Assembly (NCBI GenBank): GCA_965206595.1
Contig: OZ242214.1
Span: 1,632,001-1,696,000 of the forward strand
DNA from: Candidatus Latescibacterota bacterium
GTDB lineage: Bacteria > Latescibacterota > UBA2968 > UBA8231
Reading direction: 5' to 3'
DNA: 64,000 nucleotides
Shown: positions 613-54,759 of the stretch, one piece after another
Layout of the letters: each line of letters starts with the position of its first letter
Numbering within the stretch: the first letter of the stretch is position 1
The notes under the pieces: generated by a model
The model's input: the letters and a program-made list of their open reading frames with translations, nothing else
What the model was told of the DNA's origin: nothing
Databases searched by the model: none
Made by a program: the position numbers and the translations under genes

Positions 613-1731
613 ATGACTCACAGGATCGACAAGGGCAGTCCGAGTCTTTCCGATGCGGACATCGAAGGCCTCCTCGAGGATTTCCGCGCCATCCTGCGGG
701 GGGGCAGGCTGACACAGGGGCAGTACCTCGACCGCTTCGAACGCGAGTTTTCCGAATACGTAGGGGTAGCCCACGCCGTCGGCATGAGTTCCGGCACCGC
801 CCCCCTGGAGGTAGCCCTGCGCTATTTCGGCGTCGAGGGGGGCGAAGTGATCGTACCGACCAACACCTTCGCAGCCACCGCCAACGCCGTGATTCTCGCC
901 GGGGGAACCCCGGTCTTCGCCGATCTCGACCCGTCCACCCTCTGCAGCGGCCCTGGTGAGATCGAAGGGCTGCTTACCGGGCGGACCCGGGGTGTCATCG
1001 CCGTCCATGTGGCCGGGTTGATCGTGCCCGGCATCGAAAACATCTCCTCCTGGTGCCACGCCAACTCCCTCTTCCTGCTCGAGGACGCCGCCCACGCTCA
1101 CGGCTCCCGGGTCGGAGACCGCCGCGCCGGCGCCCTCGCAGATGCCGCTTCCTTCAGCTTCTACCCCTCCAAAGTGATGACCAGCGGGGAAGGGGGGATG
1201 CTGACGACGGACGCTCCCGGGCTGGCCGCGTTCGCGCGCAGCTTCCGTTCCCATGGGCAGGCCGCGCAGAGCCGCAGCATCGTGCGGCTCGGAAGCAACT
1301 ACCGCCTCCCCGAGCTCAGCGCGGCGCTCGGCCTGAGCCAGCTGCGCAAGCTCGATGAGATCATCGCCAGGCGCGCCCGTCTCGCGGATCGCTACCGGCA
1401 GCGGCTGGGCAGCCGGGGCGACGCCCGGCTGATTGCGACCCCGGCAAGCCAGGTTCACTCGCACTACAAGTTTCCCCTGGTACTGCCCCCCGGAATGGGG
1501 CGGGACTCCATGGCAGCAGCGCTAGCGGCGCAGGGGATTGCCACGGGAAGCATCTACTGGCCCCCGTGCCACCTCGAGCCGTATTTCGCCGGTCAGTCGG
1601 GAGAGATCCGGGCGTGCTGTCCGGTGGCGGAGGAGGTCCTGTCGAGAACCCTGACACTGCCGCTGCACACCGGCATGAGCCTCGAGGATGTCGACGCGGT
1701 CTGCGAGTCCCTGGTGCGAGCTTTCAACTGA
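613..1731 (+). CDS. DegT/DnrJ/EryC1/StrS family PLP-dependent sugar aminotransferase
   Basis: Motifs SSGTAPL, EDAAHAHG and SFYPSKVMTSGEGG (PLP lysine). Start moved to ATG 613, after GGGGGA. Confidence 0.9.
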   Translation: MTHRIDKGSPSLSDADIEGLLEDFRAILRGGRLTQGQYLDRFEREFSEYVGVAHAVGMSSGTAPLEVALRYFGVEGGEVIVPTNTFAATANAVILAGGTPVFADLDPSTLCSGPGEIEGLLTGRTRGVIAVHVAGLIVPGIENISSWCHANSLFLLEDAAHAHGSRVGDRRAGALADAASFSFYPSKVMTSGEGGMLTTDAPGLAAFARSFRSHGQAAQSRSIVRLGSNYRLPELSAALGLSQLRKLDEIIARRARLADRYRQRLGSRGDARLIATPASQVHSHYKFPLVLPPGMGRDSMAAALAAQGIATGSIYWPPCHLEPYFAGQSGEIRACCPVAEEVLSRTLTLPLHTGMSLEDVDAVCESLVRAFN

Positions 1732-1766
1732 ACCACCTTGATCCCAGACTCTTTGCACGTTCCAAA

Positions 1767-1790
1767 GTAAGTAAGTTATTGTTTACTTAC
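1767..1790. promoter_or_regulatory. palindromic operator GTAAGTAA-N8-TTACTTAC, probably bound by the adjacent TetR
   Basis: Perfect 8-bp AT-rich inverted repeat ending 2 nt before the tetR ATG. It overlaps a candidate TTGCAC-18-TATTGT promoter (1753-1782). Confidence 0.7.
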
Positions 1791-45998: not shown

Positions 45999-46099
45999 GT
46001 CGGGTGGTGGTTCACCGCCCCCACCCCGAGCCGGAGACAGGCAGGGCGACGGTACGCGACATAGCCGCCTTCCTCGAAGCTACGGGAGTCAAGCCATGA
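45995..46099 (+). pseudogene. hicA: C-terminal remnant of HicA toxin
   Basis: 34 codons, SRVVVHRPHPEPETGRATVRDIAAFLEATGVKP. This matches the HRPHP...FL...GVKP end of HicA-family toxins and overlaps the hicB start; the N-terminal half is missing. Confidence 0.75.
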
Positions 46100-46443
46100 T
46101 GGAATACAAGGGATACACCGCCAAGATAGAATTCGACGATTCCGTGGGCCGACTTCACGGGCGGGTCGTCAACAGCGGCCCCTATCCGATTGCCACCTTT
46201 GAAGCCACCGACGTCGAGGGGATCAGGCGGGAGTTCCACCGTTCCATAGACGAATACCTCGCTTCCTGCGAGGAAGATGGAATCCAGCCCCGAAAGCCAT
46301 TCTCAGGCAAGCTCAACCTTCGGCTGGGCCCTGACCTGCATCAGCGCGTGGCACAGTTTGCGGCCGAGAGCGGATTGAGCATGAACAGCTGGATTCTGCA
46401 GGCGCTCGAAAAAAGCGTGTCCCCCGAGGTCGAAGCTCGTTGA
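46096..46443 (+). CDS. hicB: HicB family antitoxin
   Basis: MEYKGYTAKIEFD...SIDEYL..C...G..PRKPFSGKLNLR...LH...SMNSW. Confidence 0.92.
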   Translation: MMEYKGYTAKIEFDDSVGRLHGRVVNSGPYPIATFEATDVEGIRREFHRSIDEYLASCEEDGIQPRKPFSGKLNLRLGPDLHQRVAQFAAESGLSMNSWILQALEKSVSPEVEAR

Positions 46444-46563
46444 TGCGATTCTGGTTGCAATTGAGGGCAGGTAGAGCAACTAGGGGAAATCGAGTCTCCT
46501 ATGGCGCAGACAGACAATCCGCCCTTCAGGTTGATCCGTTCGCTCCGTAAGGGAGAAATTAAC

Positions 46564-48643
46564 ATGGATAACTTCGCGATGTTCGCGATGGGGGCAGTAG
46601 CCCTTGGCATCGCGGCATTCTCGTTGATTTCCCGCGCCAAGAGGGTGAGGAACCTTGCTCACCTACGCGCCCGAGCGGAGGCTGGGGATACCTCAGCTCA
46701 GCCTCGGGCGCATGTACTCAACGGGTAACGGTGTGCCCCTGGATTCTGTTGAAGCGGTTCGGCGGTATCGCCAGGCAGCGGAGCAGGGGAATGCTTCAGC
46801 ACAGTTCATCCTCGGGGGCATGTACGCCGAGGGTAGCGGTGTGTCACAGGATGATGACGAAGCGTTTCGGTGGTTTCGCCAGGCAGCCGATCAAGGCGAT
46901 GCCGGAGCCCAGTACAAACTTGCGGACATGTACTCCTTGGGTATTGGAGTGTCTCAGGATGATGTCGAAGCAGCTCGGGGGTTCCGCCAGGCAGCAGTGC
47001 AGGGGAAGGACTCCGCACAGTACTGTCTCGGGCTCATGTACGAGGCCGGGAAGGGTGTGCCTCAAGATGATGTGGAAGCCTTTCGGTGGTTCTCCCAGGC
47101 AGCTGATCAAGGCAACATCTATGCATTAGGCCGTCTTGATTTGCCCCGGTATTTAGCCGTATCCGAGCGGTGCGACGCTTTAGCCGCGGCGGAGCAGGGC
47201 GATGTCGAAGCGCAGGTCAAACTCGGATTCATGTGCGCCAAGGGTAGGGGTGGAGCGCAGGGTGCTGCCGAAGCCGCCCGGTGGTTCCACCAAGCAGCTG
47301 AGCAGGGAAACGTGGAAGCCCAGGTCCAACTGGGATTCATATGCTATGGGAAGGATGATTTTGAAGCGGTTCGATGGTTCCGCCAAGCAGCCGAGAAGGG
47401 CCGCCTCGAAGCGCAAGTCCAACTCGGGCATATGTTCGAATCGGGCCAAGGTGTGTCTCAGGATGCTGCCGAAGCGGCTCGGTGGTACCGAATGGCAGGC
47501 GAGCAAGGCAACGTTTCGGCCCAGCGCAGTCTCGGGAGCATGTACAAATCGGGCCGAGGTGTTTCTCAGGATGTTGCCGAAGCGATCCGGTGGTACCGAA
47601 TGGCAGCCGATCAGGGGGACGCCCTCGCGGAGCTTGAGATAAGATGCGCAGAGCATATGACCAAGTTGAAAAGGGTATCGCAAAGGTTGAAAAAGGAAAT
47701 TTTCAAGGCCAAGGACGAAAAGGTTAGGTTGTTCAACGAAATGGCTTTCCATGACGCAGTGCGGGACGCCGAGCAGGTGACCAAGGAGGCTTTCACCGAG
47801 GATCCCAGTGTGCCACAGGATGATACCGAAGTTTTTCGGAGGTTGCGGCAAGCAGCCGAGAATGGCAACCCCATAGGGCAGGTCAAACTCGGATTGATGT
47901 ATTCCTTAGGCAGGGGAGTGACCCAGAACGATGTCGAAGCGGTTCAGTGGTATCGGCTGGCAGCCGATCAGGGCAACCTCTCTGCCCAGGGCATTCTCGG
48001 GTCCCTGTACGCTGGGGGCCGGGGAGTGCAACAGGATGATGTCGAAGCAGTTCGATGGTATCGCAAGGCGGCGGATCAAGGCTGCACCTCAGCGCAGTAC
48101 AATCTCGGGCGAATGTATTCCGACGGTCGCGGTGTTTCTCAGGATGATTCCGAAGCCGTTCGGTGGTACCGCAAGGCGGCCGAGCAGGGGAATGCCCAGG
48201 CGCAGGCCAGGCTCGGGTTCAGTTACGCCCGGGGTCTCGGGGTGTCCAAGGATGATGCCAAAGCGGTTCGGTGGTTTCGCCAGGCTGGAAATCAGGCTCC
48301 CTCCGATTTTCAGGTCAGTCTCGGGGGCATGTACGCGGGGGGTCACGGTGTGTCTCAGGATGATGCCGAAGCGGTTCGGTGGTACCGCCTGGCAACCGAC
48401 CAGAGCGACGCCTCAGGACAGTACAATCTCGGGATGATGTACGACGAGGGTCGCGGTGTGCCGCAGGATTTCGTCGCTGCACACATGTGGTTCAACTTGG
48501 CTACTGCCCGAGCAACTGGAGAGGATCGCGAGCGGGCGAAAAAGGCCCGTGATGCAGTCGCGGAAAAAATGACCACGAAGGCGCTCGTCGAGGCACACCG
48601 CTTGGCGCGTGAATGGGAAACGGACCACCCGATGTCGCAGTAG
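46564..48643 (+). pseudogene. membrane-anchored Sel1-repeat protein (~14 repeats), frameshifted at 46693-46702
   Basis: ATG 46564 after GGGAG encodes a TM helix then AEAGDTSAQ; LSLGRMY and the repeats A.QG...AQ..LG.MY..G.GV.QD..EA.RW continue in another frame. Confidence 0.85.
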
Positions 48644-49508
48644 CATCCGAAGTGCCGCGGATCAACAATATACTCCCATCACTGGTCGAAATTCCTTTAA
48701 CATTTAACCTTCCCAAATTTCTGAAGAATGTAATTCCAGACTTCAGGGAGATCAGATGGATCAAGAGGTCATTGTGAAGGAGGTCGAAATCAAAAGTTGG
48801 GAAGGGTTTCTGTCTAAGGTCTCTCAACTGGATTCCCTTCCCGAGGAGTTCGTGTATAGAGGACAAAAGGACAGTTCGTGGAGCCTACAGCCCAGCCTTG
48901 CCAGAATATGGGACTGCTTTTCCAATGCAAGGGAAAACGAGGTGCGAATCAGTGATGTGTTTTTGAGGAGATCGACCACGTTACTTAGCCCGAATATCTT
49001 TGGAGAACTCATTCGGCATAACAACATTCTCCAATGGTGGGCGCAAATGAGGCATCACGGGGCGCCCACGCGAATACTGGACTGGACCAGATCTCCCTTT
49101 GTAGCGGCTTACTTTGCCTGCGAATCCGGATGTAAATCAGGCGCTGTGTGGTGTTTGAATCGGACAAAATTTCACAACCTCAGCATGTCAGAGACAAACA
49201 AAATCCAGGAATCCTACAGCGCTTTCGTAACATACCTTGGATCAATACCTGACATTGAAGACCGGAAAACAATGGAGCGGATGTTGTACGGAGAAGATCA
49301 ACCGCACTTGGTTGCGTTCGCGGATACGAACCTCTTGACGGACCGCATGGAAAGACAACAAGGGTTGTTTTCCTACAGCAACCTTCCCCACATAGATCAC
49401 GCAGATGGGTTAGGAAATTACCCTGGGGTTCTCACCAAGCTCGTTATCTCCGACGGCATTCGTTTTGACCTCAAAAGAGAGTTCATGCATCAATTGCGGT
49501 TGATGAAC

Positions 49509-51368
49509 CCCTTGTTATTCATGGAATTTTAGTGGAGAGGGCTGTACTGGGTGCCTCCCATGCTTAGATTTCAGAGGGAAACACAAGGCAGTATCGCCCT
49601 TTGAACCCATCACACAGTAGGACACCCAATGGGTGAATTACCGTCACACACCGAGTCCGAGCAAGCCGGGCCGATTCAGCCGTCTTTCAACCGCTCCATC
49701 CACATCGAAGCCCGCCCCACCCACCTTGGCAGCGACACCGGTGCGCTGATGTTGCGTCAACTGCTCGAACACAGCCGGGTTCTGGATTGGGTCGACGCCC
49801 ACTTCGAGGATCTCCGTACCCAAGACCAGATCACGCACCCGCTGCCGGAGCTGCTGCGCACACAGATCGTGCTGCTGGCACAGGGCTGGACCCACGCCGC
49901 CGACGCCGACGCGTTGCGCCAAGATCCGATCCTGCGTCTGGCGGTCAGCGATCGCAAAGGGCAGGCGCCGTTGCGCAGCGGCGACGAAGACCGGCCGCAG
50001 GGACTGGCCAGTCAGCCGACGCTGTCGCGCCTGCTCGAGCAAGCCTCGACTGCCTATAACCGCGAGGTGTTGGAGGAAGCCGTCCTGCGCAGCGCCCGGT
50101 CTCGTTGCCGGCTGCTGGAAGGACGGATGAAATACGAGGAGTTGGCCGTCGACATGGATGCCCTGCCGATGCCGGCGCACGGGCACCAGGCGGGGGTCGA
50201 ATACAACGGCTACTTCCACGCCTCGGGGTACCATCCCCTGCTCCTCGGCTCGGCGCAGACGGGCGATTTCTTCGGTGCCGTGCTGCGGCCGGGCAACGTG
50301 CACGCCCATGAGGGTGCCTCAGAGGCTCTCGGCAAGCGCTTGGACTGGATTCAGTCGCATCTGGCCCGGCGCCTCATCCTGCGCTTCGACGCGGCCTCGG
50401 TGAGCGGGTCTTTCCTGAGTGAGCTGGAAGCGCGGGCCGACACCTCGTACGTGGCGCGCATCAAGAAGAATGCGCGCCTGGAGGAGCTGGCTCGTGCCTG
50501 GGTGGAAGGCTATCAGCAGGAGCTGGCGCAGCACCCGGAAGAGCTGCGGGAAGAGGGTTTTCGCTGTCGCGAGCTGCGCTATCAAGCCAGGTCCTGGGCG
50601 CAGCCCCGGCGGGTGGTGTTGGTCCTGGTCCCTTCCGAGACGGAAGAGCTGCCCATCGCCCGCCACTTCTTCCTGATCACCGACCAGAGTCCCCAGACGA
50701 TGAGCGGCCGCGACCTGGTCGCCTTTTATCGTCAGCGCGGCCTTTTCGAGCGCATGCTCGGCGAGTTGAGCTCCACCCTCCAGCCTCAGCTCTCCTCTAC
50801 CACCCGTCGCAAGCAACACTACCGGGGTCGAGAGCCGCGTCAGCGCACCCCGTCCCGGGATGCCTTCGCTGCCAACCAGGCGCTTCTGACCTTGAACCTG
50901 CTGGCCTACAACCTGCTTCACCTGGGCCGCCAGGCCGCCGAACGCGCCGAGGCCCGACGCGGGCGGCCCCGCACATACGGACGCTCGACGACGGCCCTGA
51001 GCCTGGACAGTTTTCGACGGCGCTACCTGCGCCTGCCGTCCCGCGTCACCTTGCATGGGCGCAGGGTGGGCGTCATCCTGACCCAAGGGACGGCGGCTGC
51101 CTGGGATCGTCTGTGGAGATTTCTGGCCACGCTCAAACCGGTGGACGCGGCGATGGCGTAAGCGCAGGCCGGGTCGGTCGGGATGATGGGCTCGCAAAGG
51201 CAAGCGTCTTCGAGAAGGCGCGTACAATTTCAACAAGGTCGGTAGAGATAAGGAGACGGCTCTACCCAAAAAGCCGACTATAGAAGGAACGCAAGCCTCT
51301 GAGGCTAAGCAAAGGGGTCTCGGAAGCGCCTATGTCCGCTTATGCGCGGGTTGAATGAATAACAAAGG
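49509..51368 (+). mobile_element. complete IS1380-family insertion sequence, 1860 bp
   Basis: IRL CCCTTGTTATTCAT (49509-49522) and IRR ATGAATAACAAAGG (51355-51368) match 13/14. Target duplication TGAAC at 49504-49508 and 51369-51373. Confidence 0.92.
49629..51161 (+). CDS. IS1380-family DDE transposase
   Basis: SDTGAL.L, D...LRQDP, LASQPTLSRL, VDMD, HGHQ...YNGYF....YHPL, LRPGN, RFDA, YRQRG..E, F.AN.A.L....LAYNL. Confidence 0.92.
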   Translation: MGELPSHTESEQAGPIQPSFNRSIHIEARPTHLGSDTGALMLRQLLEHSRVLDWVDAHFEDLRTQDQITHPLPELLRTQIVLLAQGWTHAADADALRQDPILRLAVSDRKGQAPLRSGDEDRPQGLASQPTLSRLLEQASTAYNREVLEEAVLRSARSRCRLLEGRMKYEELAVDMDALPMPAHGHQAGVEYNGYFHASGYHPLLLGSAQTGDFFGAVLRPGNVHAHEGASEALGKRLDWIQSHLARRLILRFDAASVSGSFLSELEARADTSYVARIKKNARLEELARAWVEGYQQELAQHPEELREEGFRCRELRYQARSWAQPRRVVLVLVPSETEELPIARHFFLITDQSPQTMSGRDLVAFYRQRGLFERMLGELSSTLQPQLSSTTRRKQHYRGREPRQRTPSRDAFAANQALLTLNLLAYNLLHLGRQAAERAEARRGRPRTYGRSTTALSLDSFRRRYLRLPSRVTLHGRRVGVILTQGTAAAWDRLWRFLATLKPVDAAMA

Positions 51369-51487
51369 TGAACATAAACGGTTTCAGTCTGTTCCCCGAT
51401 CTCGATGGGATCGGCAGGTATTGCATCGAATTGGCCCGTCACAACGTGGAAGCGGTATGGTAATTAAACCATAGGAAGGCAGTTTGA

Positions 51488-52705
51488 ATGATCAATAGAC
51501 TTGCCCATGCGTTGCTCCTGCTGGCGCTGGCCTGCGGAGAGGAGGACAAGGGTACGGGGCCTGTCCCGGAACCTGGTCCGGATCCCGTCTCCGAACCGGA
51601 TCCCGAAGCTGCGCTTTTCGCTGCGGAGGTAGCGGCTGTTCGTGAAGGGTGTGAAGACGGCTGCATTCTTGCCGTCGCGTCCAACGAATCGGACGACTAC
51701 GGGGCCTGCTACGTGTCTTGTGTGTGGGAAAGTGAGAAGGAGTTGTGGAAGGTCAGGATGTTGGAGGTCCTGGCCGAGTTCCACGATCAGGGGATCGAGG
51801 TTGGGTTTCCCGTTTCCGACCTTCCAGACAAGTATTTCCTCGAGATCATCGGCTCAGGGGACACACCTCGCACCTGGGTTTCAAGGCTTGCCTTGACGTT
51901 TGCGGCCATGGCGGGTGATGGGGAAACAGTGCGCTTTTTGTTGGAACAAGGGGCCGATTTGCCGGGCGATACGGAGGTTTTCTTTCTGCCAGGTGGGGCG
52001 GCAATGGAGTTTGTCCGGATCGAGGGGGGGACGTTCTTCATGGGATCGCCGTCTTCGGAGGAGGGCCGGTGGGATCATGAAGGTCCGCTGCATGAGGTGG
52101 AGATCAGCACGGGGTTCTGGTTGGGCAGGTACGAGGTGACGCAGGGGCAGTGGGAGGCGGAAATGGGGTCGCGGCCGTGGTCTGGAGGAAACAATGTGGT
52201 TGAGGACCCCTTCCATCCGGCGGTGTATGTTTCCTGGGAAGACGTGCAGGCATTCATTGAGAAGTTGAACAGTGCCGCGGGTGAAGCACTGTATCGTCTG
52301 CCGAGTGAGGCGGAGTGGGAGTATGCGTGTCGGGCGGGTACCAGGTCTCCGTGGGCGTTCGGGGATGACGAGAGTCGGCTTGTCGATTATGCGTGGTATT
52401 ATGCCAATACGTTCGATGTGGGTGAGGAGTATGCTCATGCGGTGGGTCTGAAGGTTGCGAATCCATGGGGGTTGCACGATATGCACGGGAATGTCTGGGA
52501 GTGGGTGCATGACTGGTATGACGGGGGCTATTATCGAGATTCCCCTCGAGTAGACCCTCGGGGGCCTGAAACCGGCTCATCTCGCGTTATCCGGGGCGGC
52601 CGTTTCGACGATTTCGCCCGGTTTGTGCGGTCGGCGAGTCGCCACAACGTCTCGCCGGGGCTTCGTGGCGAAGGCTTGGGCCTGCGTCTTTTACGGGATC
52701 CTTGA
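51488..52705 (+). CDS. lipoprotein with ankyrin-like segment and C-terminal formylglycine-generating-enzyme (FGE/SUMF1, CLec-fold) domain
   Basis: Lipobox LALAC, Pro-rich linker, ALTFAAMAGDGETVRFLLEQGAD, F.MGS, YEVTQGQW, RLPSEAEWEYACRAG, N.WGLHDMHGNVWEW, RVIRGG. Confidence 0.9.
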   Translation: MINRLAHALLLLALACGEEDKGTGPVPEPGPDPVSEPDPEAALFAAEVAAVREGCEDGCILAVASNESDDYGACYVSCVWESEKELWKVRMLEVLAEFHDQGIEVGFPVSDLPDKYFLEIIGSGDTPRTWVSRLALTFAAMAGDGETVRFLLEQGADLPGDTEVFFLPGGAAMEFVRIEGGTFFMGSPSSEEGRWDHEGPLHEVEISTGFWLGRYEVTQGQWEAEMGSRPWSGGNNVVEDPFHPAVYVSWEDVQAFIEKLNSAAGEALYRLPSEAEWEYACRAGTRSPWAFGDDESRLVDYAWYYANTFDVGEEYAHAVGLKVANPWGLHDMHGNVWEWVHDWYDGGYYRDSPRVDPRGPETGSSRVIRGGRFDDFARFVRSASRHNVSPGLRGEGLGLRLLRDP

Positions 52706-52770
52706 CCGATGTGCTCTTTTCCCCTTGACCGGGGAGCACTTCGGGATGCGCGGCCTCAATCGAGTCTGGC

Positions 52771-54759
52771 ATGACAACCCCGATCACCTCCCTGACAGCC
52801 GTCGGCGGAATCCTCCTGCCCGATCTTCGGGCGCGCTCGCTCACTCTGGACTCCCCCCGGACCCTGACCCCGGTCCGCAGCCGCGCCGAGTGGCAGAAGC
52901 GCGCCGCGTACATCCGCCACCACATCCTCGCCTGCGCCGGACTGCTGCCACTGCCGGAGAGGACCCCGCTCAACCCTCACATCTTCGAGCCGCTTCAAAG
53001 GGAAGAATACTCTGTCGAGAAAGTGTTTTTCGAGAGCCTTCCGGGTTACCTGGTCTGCGGCAACCTCTATCGGCCGCTGCGGCCGGGGAAGACCCGGTTT
53101 CCCGGGATCGCGCATCCGCATGGACACTGGTCGGGGGGCCGCCTCGAGAACGGGGATGCCTGCTCAGTCCCGAACCGCTGCATCGAACTGGCCAGGCGCG
53201 GGTTCGTCAGCTTCTCCTGGGACATGGCCGGGTACCTCGACAGCGGCCAGATCGCCCACCGCGCCTTCGGCGGCCCCCGCGAGGACCTGTGGGGTATCGG
53301 GGTTCTGGGCATCCAGCTCTGGAACAGCATCCGCGCCGTCGACTTCCTGCAGAGCCTGCCCGACGTCGACGCCGGCCGCATCGGCTGCACCGGCGCTTCG
53401 GGCGGCGGCACCCAGACTTTTCTGCTGACCGCGGTCGACGACCGGGTGACCGCGTCGGCGCCGGTCAACATGGTCTCCGCTCACATGCAGGGGGGCTGCG
53501 TGTGCGAGAACCAGAGCCACCTTCGCGTCGACATCGACAACGTCGAGATCGCCGCGGCCGCGGCCCCGAGGCCGCAGCTTCTCATCGCCGCCACCGGTGA
53601 CTGGACCGCCCATACCCTGGAGCACGAGTACCCGTTCGTGCGCTCGGTATACCAGCTCTTCGGCGCCGCCGCGAAAGTGAGCGCGGTTCGTTTCGACGCC
53701 CCCCACAACTACCACCGGGGAAGCCGCGAGGCGGTGTACGCCTTCTTCGAGCGCTGGCTTCTGGGGTCGCGCCGCCGCAGCCGTCCGGAGGCGCCGCTGC
53801 AGGTCGAGGCCGAGGGGGACCTTCGGGTTTTCTCCCGCCGTCCCCGGCCGCGGTCGGCGTTGCGCCGCAACGAGGTCGTCCCCGCCTTGGTGGCTCGGTC
53901 GGAAAACCGGATGGGCTCGTTCGAGATCCGCATCCCGGAGGATCTGGACAGGTTCCGCAAGGCCATGGGCCCGGCCCTTGAGCACGCCCTCGCCGCGCAC
54001 CTTCCGGACGAGGTCGCCGCCCGCGACTGCGGCCGCTCGAGAATTGAGGGCGGCTACCTGCAGCGCTTCGCCCTCGGCCGCGCGGGGGCCGGGGACTCGG
54101 TGCCGGCGATCCTGGTCTCGCGCCTGCCCCTGCAGGACCGCGCCCCGGTCACTCTGCTGCTGCACCCGGCCGGGAAGGGGGCAGGCTGGCAGGGGGAACG
54201 CATGCCGCAGCTGGTCGCCGGGCTCCTCGGCAGGGGGCAGCAGGTGCTCGCCGTCGACCTGTTCGGAACCGGTGAGGCCGGATCCCTTGAAGAGGCTGAC
54301 GCCGGAAAAATCCATCACTATTTCACCTACAACCGAACTCCCGCCGCCAACCAGGTTCAGGACATCCTGACGGCGCTGGCATTCGCCCGGCAACACGGCG
54401 GCGGGTCCGTCAACCTGCTGGCCCTGAAGGGAACCGGGGTCCCGGCTCTGCTGGCACGGGCCCTGGCACCTTGGGCAGGCAACGCCTGCCTGTCGCTGGC
54501 GGCTTTTTCGTTCGACGACCGCAGCTGGCTCCGTCACTGTTTGGTTCCCGGGGTGCGCAGCGCCGGGGACGTGCGCACTGCCGTGGCCCTGGCAGCTCCC
54601 GGCCGCCTTTTGCTCCACGGGGCAGGCCCCGGTTTTCCTTCGTCCTGGGCTCGGAAGGCGTACCGGGCCGCTGGCAGGCCGCGTTCCCTGCGCGTATCTC
54701 CGCGTGCGGCTCCTCTGGAAGAGATGGTCCGGTGGACGGCTGCCGTTCCCCGGAGTTGA
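52771..54759 (+). CDS. acetylxylan esterase-like alpha/beta hydrolase with second degenerate hydrolase domain
   Basis: EKVFFES.PG...GNLY.P, PHGHW, nucleophile elbow GASGGGTQT, MQGGCVCEN, HNY. Confidence 0.8.
   Translation: MTTPITSLTAVGGILLPDLRARSLTLDSPRTLTPVRSRAEWQKRAAYIRHHILACAGLLPLPERTPLNPHIFEPLQREEYSVEKVFFESLPGYLVCGNLYRPLRPGKTRFPGIAHPHGHWSGGRLENGDACSVPNRCIELARRGFVSFSWDMAGYLDSGQIAHRAFGGPREDLWGIGVLGIQLWNSIRAVDFLQSLPDVDAGRIGCTGASGGGTQTFLLTAVDDRVTASAPVNMVSAHMQGGCVCENQSHLRVDIDNVEIAAAAAPRPQLLIAATGDWTAHTLEHEYPFVRSVYQLFGAAAKVSAVRFDAPHNYHRGSREAVYAFFERWLLGSRRRSRPEAPLQVEAEGDLRVFSRRPRPRSALRRNEVVPALVARSENRMGSFEIRIPEDLDRFRKAMGPALEHALAAHLPDEVAARDCGRSRIEGGYLQRFALGRAGAGDSVPAILVSRLPLQDRAPVTLLLHPAGKGAGWQGERMPQLVAGLLGRGQQVLAVDLFGTGEAGSLEEADAGKIHHYFTYNRTPAANQVQDILTALAFARQHGGGSVNLLALKGTGVPALLARALAPWAGNACLSLAAFSFDDRSWLRHCLVPGVRSAGDVRTAVALAAPGRLLLHGAGPGFPSSWARKAYRAAGRPRSLRVSPRAAPLEEMVRWTAAVPRS

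Follow-up and report, generated by a model that had tools for sequence, protein, structure and literature searches.

A predicted lipoprotein gene of a Latescibacterota bacterium as a probable retired DGR target with a nearly fixed variable region

The window analysed here, a stretch of 64,000 nucleotides from the genome of a Candidatus Latescibacterota bacterium, carries a predicted lipoprotein gene whose last codons resemble the variable region (VR) of a diversity-generating retroelement (DGR). This raises the question of whether the gene is a remote target that is still diversified in trans, as proposed in the initial annotation, a target that has lost its element, or a gene that has never been a target. 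The 3' end of the gene is likely a fossil DGR variable region; the element was probably lost, and one variant is now nearly fixed throughout the genus. Since no element was found in the genome and the residues in question are almost unchanged in related species, the gene is likely a retired target and not one that is still being diversified.

The gene and its C-terminal domain

The features of the locus are reported in table 1. The Pfam FGE-sulfatase match covers residues 174-403 of the 405-aa protein, and the reading frame ends with the stop codon 52703-52705. The model of the FGE domain has a pLDDT of 97; that of the full-length protein is of low confidence (pLDDT 41), including the N-terminal helical region. 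No sigma-70 promoter or intrinsic terminator was called within 51150-52900.

Table 1. Coordinates of the features of the FGE gene, its 3' flank and the related DGR of G012 (window positions, except for G012).
Feature	Position	Strand	Basis or remark
Predicted 405-aa lipoprotein gene with C-terminal FGE-subtype CLec domain; likely former DGR target	51488..52705	+	ORF, Pfam, model, syntenic orthologues in G001 and G002
Signal-peptide-like N-terminus ending in lipobox-like LALA-C16	51488..51535	+	judged by eye; C16 invariant across 13 aligned orthologues
Pro-rich linker and helical N-terminal region	51536..51979	+	does not align to G012 target; ankyrin-like lead near its end
FGE-sulfatase (CLec) domain, single cysteine C281	52007..52696	+	PF03781, E 4.7e-47
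Probable fossil variable region	52571..52692	+	homology; 76% over 122 nt to G012 template repeat
Span of 13 putatively formerly variable codons, now nearly fixed	52601..52675	+	
Segment after last variable codon, expected IMH site	52676..52696	+	inferred from position
9-bp direct repeat CCTTGACCG	52700-52708 and 52723-52731	+	not conserved in congeners, probably incidental
Pyrimidine-rich 3' flank, resembling flanks of RT-linked DGR targets	52706..52730	+	19/25 C/T
Bulged hairpin with 6-nt TTGACC loop	52711..52739	+	outer stem not conserved
G012 DGR (RT-TR-target)	C1:868290-870538		

The same fold is found in three known proteins. PvdO (5hha, TM 0.87) is the top match in both sequence and fold; the others are TvpA (2y3c, TM 0.87, rmsd 2.4), the DGR variable protein of Treponema denticola, and the formylglycine-generating enzyme SUMF1 (TM 0.79). 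Neither enzymatic identity was retained. With the NCBIfam model NF051459 of the PvdO dihydropyoverdine dehydrogenase the protein scores 136.9, far under the cut-off of 500 bits. Formylglycine-generating enzymes rely for catalysis on two cysteines of the C-terminal active-site loop; the window domain has one cysteine and lacks this pair, so a sulfatase-maturing enzyme is unlikely. The product would be a lipid-anchored, non-catalytic binder.

TvpA is itself a lipoprotein, and it is similar to the window protein in its fold, its C-terminal variable region and its RGG-x-F/W...R...G-x-R scaffold. The window gene differs from TvpA-type targets of the FGE-subtype CLec fold in three respects: no cognate template repeat (TR), reverse transcriptase (RT) or Avd was found for it, its variable-region residues are nearly fixed across species, and it has an extra N-terminal helical region. 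Because the variable residues of solved DGR CLec proteins are exposed and make up the binding site (PMC6328139, partial text), the 13 fixed residues of the tail likely define, by homology to TvpA and TaqVP, the binding pocket of the predicted surface protein.

A single ankyrin-repeat-like motif is located just before the FGE domain (51890-51965; Atlas score 0.87, no Pfam match) and is a lead only. Further upstream, an IS1380-family element (49508-51369, transposase 49629-51161), of which the genome has about 28 near-identical copies, interrupts an FRG-domain gene that starts at 48756 and whose C-terminal remainder resumes near 51369. A lower-GC block directly upstream of the FGE gene (46096-49532) comprises a short HicB-like ORF (judged by eye), a Sel1-repeat gene and the FRG gene; it is present in the congener G001 and unmatched in the equivalent region in the congener G002.

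Origin of the C-terminal tail

The tail scaffold and its 13 listed codons are present as claimed in the initial annotation, 12 of the 13 ending in C or T. The codons encode R372, D374, D375, F376, F379, S384, H386, N387, V388, L392, G394, E395 and G396. A comparison of the tail DNA with 61 genomes revealed strong matches in both congeneric species (G001 and G002) and two more, 1.2 kb apart, in G012, a genome of the same family. The gene order in G012 is RT, then a TR rich in Asn codons, then an FGE target that is 74% identical to the FGE domain of the window gene. The 13 codons proposed to have been diversified match 13 adenine-rich codons of this TR, namely AAC, AAT and GAC codons.

The window tail differs from the G012 TR at 18 of 26 template-A sites and at 11 of 88 other sites (Fisher 5e-8); for the G012 target and its own TR, the corresponding values are 18/26 and 9/88. 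This TR is the template of a relative, with 11 non-A changes from the window tail, and not the ancestral TR of the window gene. In 11 target-TR pairs from four RT- or TR-linked loci (G044, G075, L188 and L144), which served as positive controls, there are 0-1 non-A mismatches. When the window gene is compared with the G012 target, 19 of 26 first and second codon positions differ within the 13 codons versus 52/402 in the domain body (p=4e-11), and the third positions differ at 3/13 versus 46/201 (p=1). The TR match and this inverted codon-position pattern argue that the tail descends from a variable region of the DGR type, carried by a CLec fold of the FGE subtype. The initial annotation had reached the same assignment, which is also in line with the fold match to TvpA.

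Among the rival explanations, the one that survives best, although it is unlikely, is that the gene encodes an ordinary FGE-family binder with no DGR in its past; its 13 positions would be fast-evolving pocket residues, and the resemblance to the TR would reflect common descent with the G012 target. Two of the signals are indeed generic to FGE tails. The pyrimidine endings, called suggestive in the initial annotation, are unusual relative to the whole gene (198/405 codons; binomial p=0.0014) but ordinary among 60 control FGE tails, which have a median of 12/13 and 33 of which reach at least 12; the count was therefore rejected as DGR evidence. The control set comes from 62 tails matched among at least 78 distant metagenome FGE loci (37-56% identity); it consists of the 60 that are not template-like, some of which may themselves be DGR-derived. 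Mismatch to the G012 TR at A sites has a median of 17/26 in the control tails, and adenine-site mismatch alone is not diagnostic of DGR ancestry. By analogy, the 13 positions may be exposed pocket residues that are variable in FGE proteins anyway. In addition, the changes at codon positions 1 and 2 relative to the G012 target could all lie in the G012 lineage.

Three observations nevertheless speak against a gene that was never diversified. First, most differences between the window tail and the TR fall at A sites, and the tail shares the third bases of the TR, C or T, in 11 of the 13 codons (12 of 13 in G001), whereas the 60 control tails agree at no more than 10/13 third bases (median 7) and have at least 18 non-A mismatches. 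Second, in a quick maximum-likelihood tree of 57 rows, computed without the 13 positions and without bootstrap, the G012 target and P0043 are sister to the eight-row orthologue clade (SH-aLRT 97; 99 for the orthologue rows), and the relatives among which the clade of the window gene is nested have other residues at most of the 13 positions. Third, a 3' flank resembling those of DGR targets persists.

The pyrimidine content of this flank is reached by 1.5% of 6647 ORF flanks of the genome, and 0.5% of 1500 sampled flanks are at least as similar to the flanks of eight RT-linked targets. The congeners keep a tract rich in pyrimidines and the G run behind it, a combination also present after RT-linked targets in this class; the flank is likely a degenerate DGR relic. 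The expected IMH site precedes it, at the position described for TaqVP, Mtd and TvpA (PMC6328139, partial text).

Two other downstream structures had been pointed out, and neither is kept in the two congeners, so that both were rejected as conserved signals. The described hairpin fold is reproduced (-10.3 kcal/mol; z -3.8 in a 40-nt window chosen post hoc, z -1.6 in 66 nt), but the same region has no such fold in the congeners (z +1.3 and 0.0). Its bulged stem and 6-nt loop also depart from the phage DGR consensus, a GC-rich stem of 7-10 bp with a 4-nt GRNA loop (PMC3240598, partial text). A 3' hairpin is seen in 34% of DGRs (PMC5758913, partial text), and live DGR targets in the same class likewise lack the canonical form. 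Both copies of the 9-bp repeat CCTTGACCG exist; the first shares bases with both the final codon and the stop codon, and therefore does not lie after the stop as had been stated.

Search for a DGR and conservation of the tail

The genome (G000) is a single contig of 7.05 Mb, 92.9% complete, with unbinned plasmids and phages outside the data. No TR was found in it by BLASTn (word 7), by an adenine-tolerant scan, with the G012 TR as query or by a motif scan; the BLASTn comparison of the tail with the whole genome, suggested in the initial annotation as a check, thus returned no non-coding template copy. The adenine-tolerant scan used six windows on both strands, and the best non-self 60-nt windows had 11-14 non-A mismatches. 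RVT_1 is represented by two RT loci, each frameshifted or interrupted (split over frames) and one of them inside transposase sequence. For both, the best model is that of group II intron RTs, with scores under its cut-off, and identity to the G012 RT is only 31-34% (E 7e-15; the DGR RTs of G044 and G075 reach E 1e-55). No DGR-type RT was found in the 7.05 Mb, and no Avd with either a protein or a family query, G044 serving as positive control. The reported lack of a retroelement in the vicinity holds, within these searches, for TR, DGR RT and Avd over the whole contig.

None of these three parts was found in G001 or G002 either. The window gene is syntenic in both congeners, and no DGR parts were seen near the orthologous gene. 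Scans of viral contigs yielded one DGR, with an RT 53% identical to that of G012; two TR-shaped patterns had no match there. The genome contains four other FGE matches, which are distant (30% identity where aligned), so there is no common scaffold or 3' flank of the kind that had been looked for among the paralogues.

Within the genus the tail residues are, on sequence comparison, nearly fixed: the three congeneric species, taken in pairs, show 2, 3 and 1 substitutions at the 26 template-A-type sites. With one to three changes per pair, pN at the 13 codons is 0.03-0.10, versus 0.06-0.09 in the body and a gene pS of 0.25-0.33. The third bases of the tail scaffold differ between congeners at 5-7 of 25 positions, a drift similar to that of the body, and the variable codons are nearly unchanged. 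Among the matches listed, 15 of 16 orthologous proteins include the tail, and all of these read RD(D/S)(F/S)(F/L)(S/N)HNVLG(E/D)G at the 13 positions; the variant is common to orthologues down to 79% identity. In six non-redundant orthologues, 9/13 of these positions are invariant, compared with 138/201 in the body. Across 39 relatives that are not orthologues, by contrast, the most frequent residue at the 13 columns has a median frequency of 0.23. When the 13 columns are compared with other sister-variable columns, the difference in orthologue conservation (9/13 vs 9/24) is not significant (p=0.09). Purifying selection would account for the retention of the fixed residues, judged from one to three substitutions per pair.

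Contigs from eight sequencing runs, which are blind to rare within-sample variants, gave a similar picture. For six runs, the contig pieces listed include one that spans the tail, with zero differences; one run (X1) may be the source of the window. The other two runs represent related strains or species: of at least eight differences within 52583-52702, those listed include five synonymous changes at third positions and one change at a template-A site.

These data bear on the proposal that the gene is a live remote target on which a TR and RT located at another place in the cell (in an assembly gap, a plasmid or a phage) act in trans, its variants being purged by strong selection. This is very improbable. 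The VR ancestry and DGR-like 3' flank would fit it, targets more than 100 kb away are documented (PMC5758913, partial text), activity can be masked by purifying selection (PMC8144416, partial text), and the genome is incomplete. However, the searches of the three genomes turned up no TR, DGR RT or Avd, the two TR-shaped patterns are unmatched in viral contigs, and in the congeners the scaffold of the tail has drifted like the body while the variable codons have not moved. Continued diversification, as initially proposed, is further opposed by the nearly identical orthologue residues and by contig differences that are mostly synonymous and not adenine-patterned. The least probable reading, that a former target has merely drifted since DGR loss without selection on the variant or has turned into a PvdO-like enzyme, could appeal to the small counts and to PvdO as the top match, but pN at the 13 codons is about that of the conserved body and well below the gene pS, and the PvdO model score (137) is far from its cut-off.

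DGR remnants in the family and the fate of the target

With the queries used, only decayed DGR remnants were found in 76 genomes of this Latescibacterota family, many of which are incomplete, so that absence here means not found with these queries. The G012 RT query matched 3 of 132 class genomes; of the 75 other family genomes searched, the one match was G012 itself. The TR pattern occurs in 2 of 76 family genomes (G012 and G030), both decayed-looking, and Avd is above cut-off in none of the 76, with two weak matches below it.

The G012 RT is about 30 residues short at its N-terminus, where it is divergent from an intact DGR RT, and G012 has no Avd. A two-ORF transposase, IS5-like by eye, lies a few bases past the stop of the target (C1:868290-871400; L067 8225-11362). 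The nine non-A mismatches of the G012 target are not in themselves proof of decay, because up to 11 have been reported for DGRs (PMC5758913, partial text). In G030 (C250, about 800-1785, minus strand; L185, L020), an apparently 5'-truncated FGE frame has a tail whose first half is VR-like and second half TR-like, reading through without the usual stop. This looks like a deletion via VR-TR recombination, which would have removed anything between the two. An intact-looking multi-target DGR of the same class, with Avd, RT, TR and at least eight variable regions having 0-1 non-A mismatches, is present in G044 (C1:4205000-4241000; L183, L184).

Other FGE groups (L053/L056, L058/L059, L051/L052/L054 and P0105/P0108/P0110) have template-A-equivalent positions that are conserved between genomes, with 1-7 differences out of 26 in DNA pairs, and are candidates for independently frozen targets. 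P0058 and P0060 are close in the body and differ at most of the template-A-equivalent positions. About 30 FGE-domain matches, many in long open frames, occur in each of the fragmented assemblies G008 and G022, in which no DGR RT was found.

The preferred reading, a retired target, can be put as a sequence of events. An ancestral retroelement would have rewritten 13 codons with adenine templates, which are predicted to encode a binding pocket at the surface. The gene would then have left or outlived its DGR cassette before the three species split, and one variant would have been selected and nearly fixed, its residues R, D, H, N, V, L, G, E and G possibly recognizing one stable ligand. The decayed DGR of G012 belongs to the sister target gene and its TR accounts for the 13 codons of the window gene; it differs from the window locus in that TR and RT are still present.

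The fate of a DGR target after loss of its element has already been proposed, in the form of remnant targets such as all3226 of Nostoc PCC 7120 (Vallota-Eastman et al. 2020, PMC7517822, partial text). The Nostoc genome still holds two DGRs, and the part of that article available describes no cross-species fixation, whereas no DGR was detected in the window genome and its congeners and the variant is common to distant orthologues. A theory preprint, in its accessible part, names RT loss as a scenario yet to be modelled (10.64898/2026.02.18.706561). No case of an orphaned DGR variant conserved across species was found in the literature searched. The individual parts are thus all known, and the cross-species fixation of a retired variant is the new element relative to the literature found.

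At this locus both ends of the process are in hand: a related template marks the 13 codons, and the orthologue set gives evidence of their fixation. Codons resembling a variable region at the tail of an FGE gene do not imply a live DGR. One defined pocket sequence can be searched for a ligand, unlike a hypervariable target. A broader reading, which is tentative and in our view slightly less probable than its contrary, is that DGRs were lost from the whole family and their products domesticated: several FGE/CLec lineages would have been frozen independently, each on one variant made by a DGR, and would now be passed on as ordinary receptors of fixed sequence. If so, the VR-by-TR deletion in G030 and the insertion-sequence damage in G012 would be routes of DGR loss, the frozen receptors would resemble a germline-fixed antibody, and selection would have favoured the RD-HNV-L-GEG pocket of this gene for a conserved ligand from the habitat or host.
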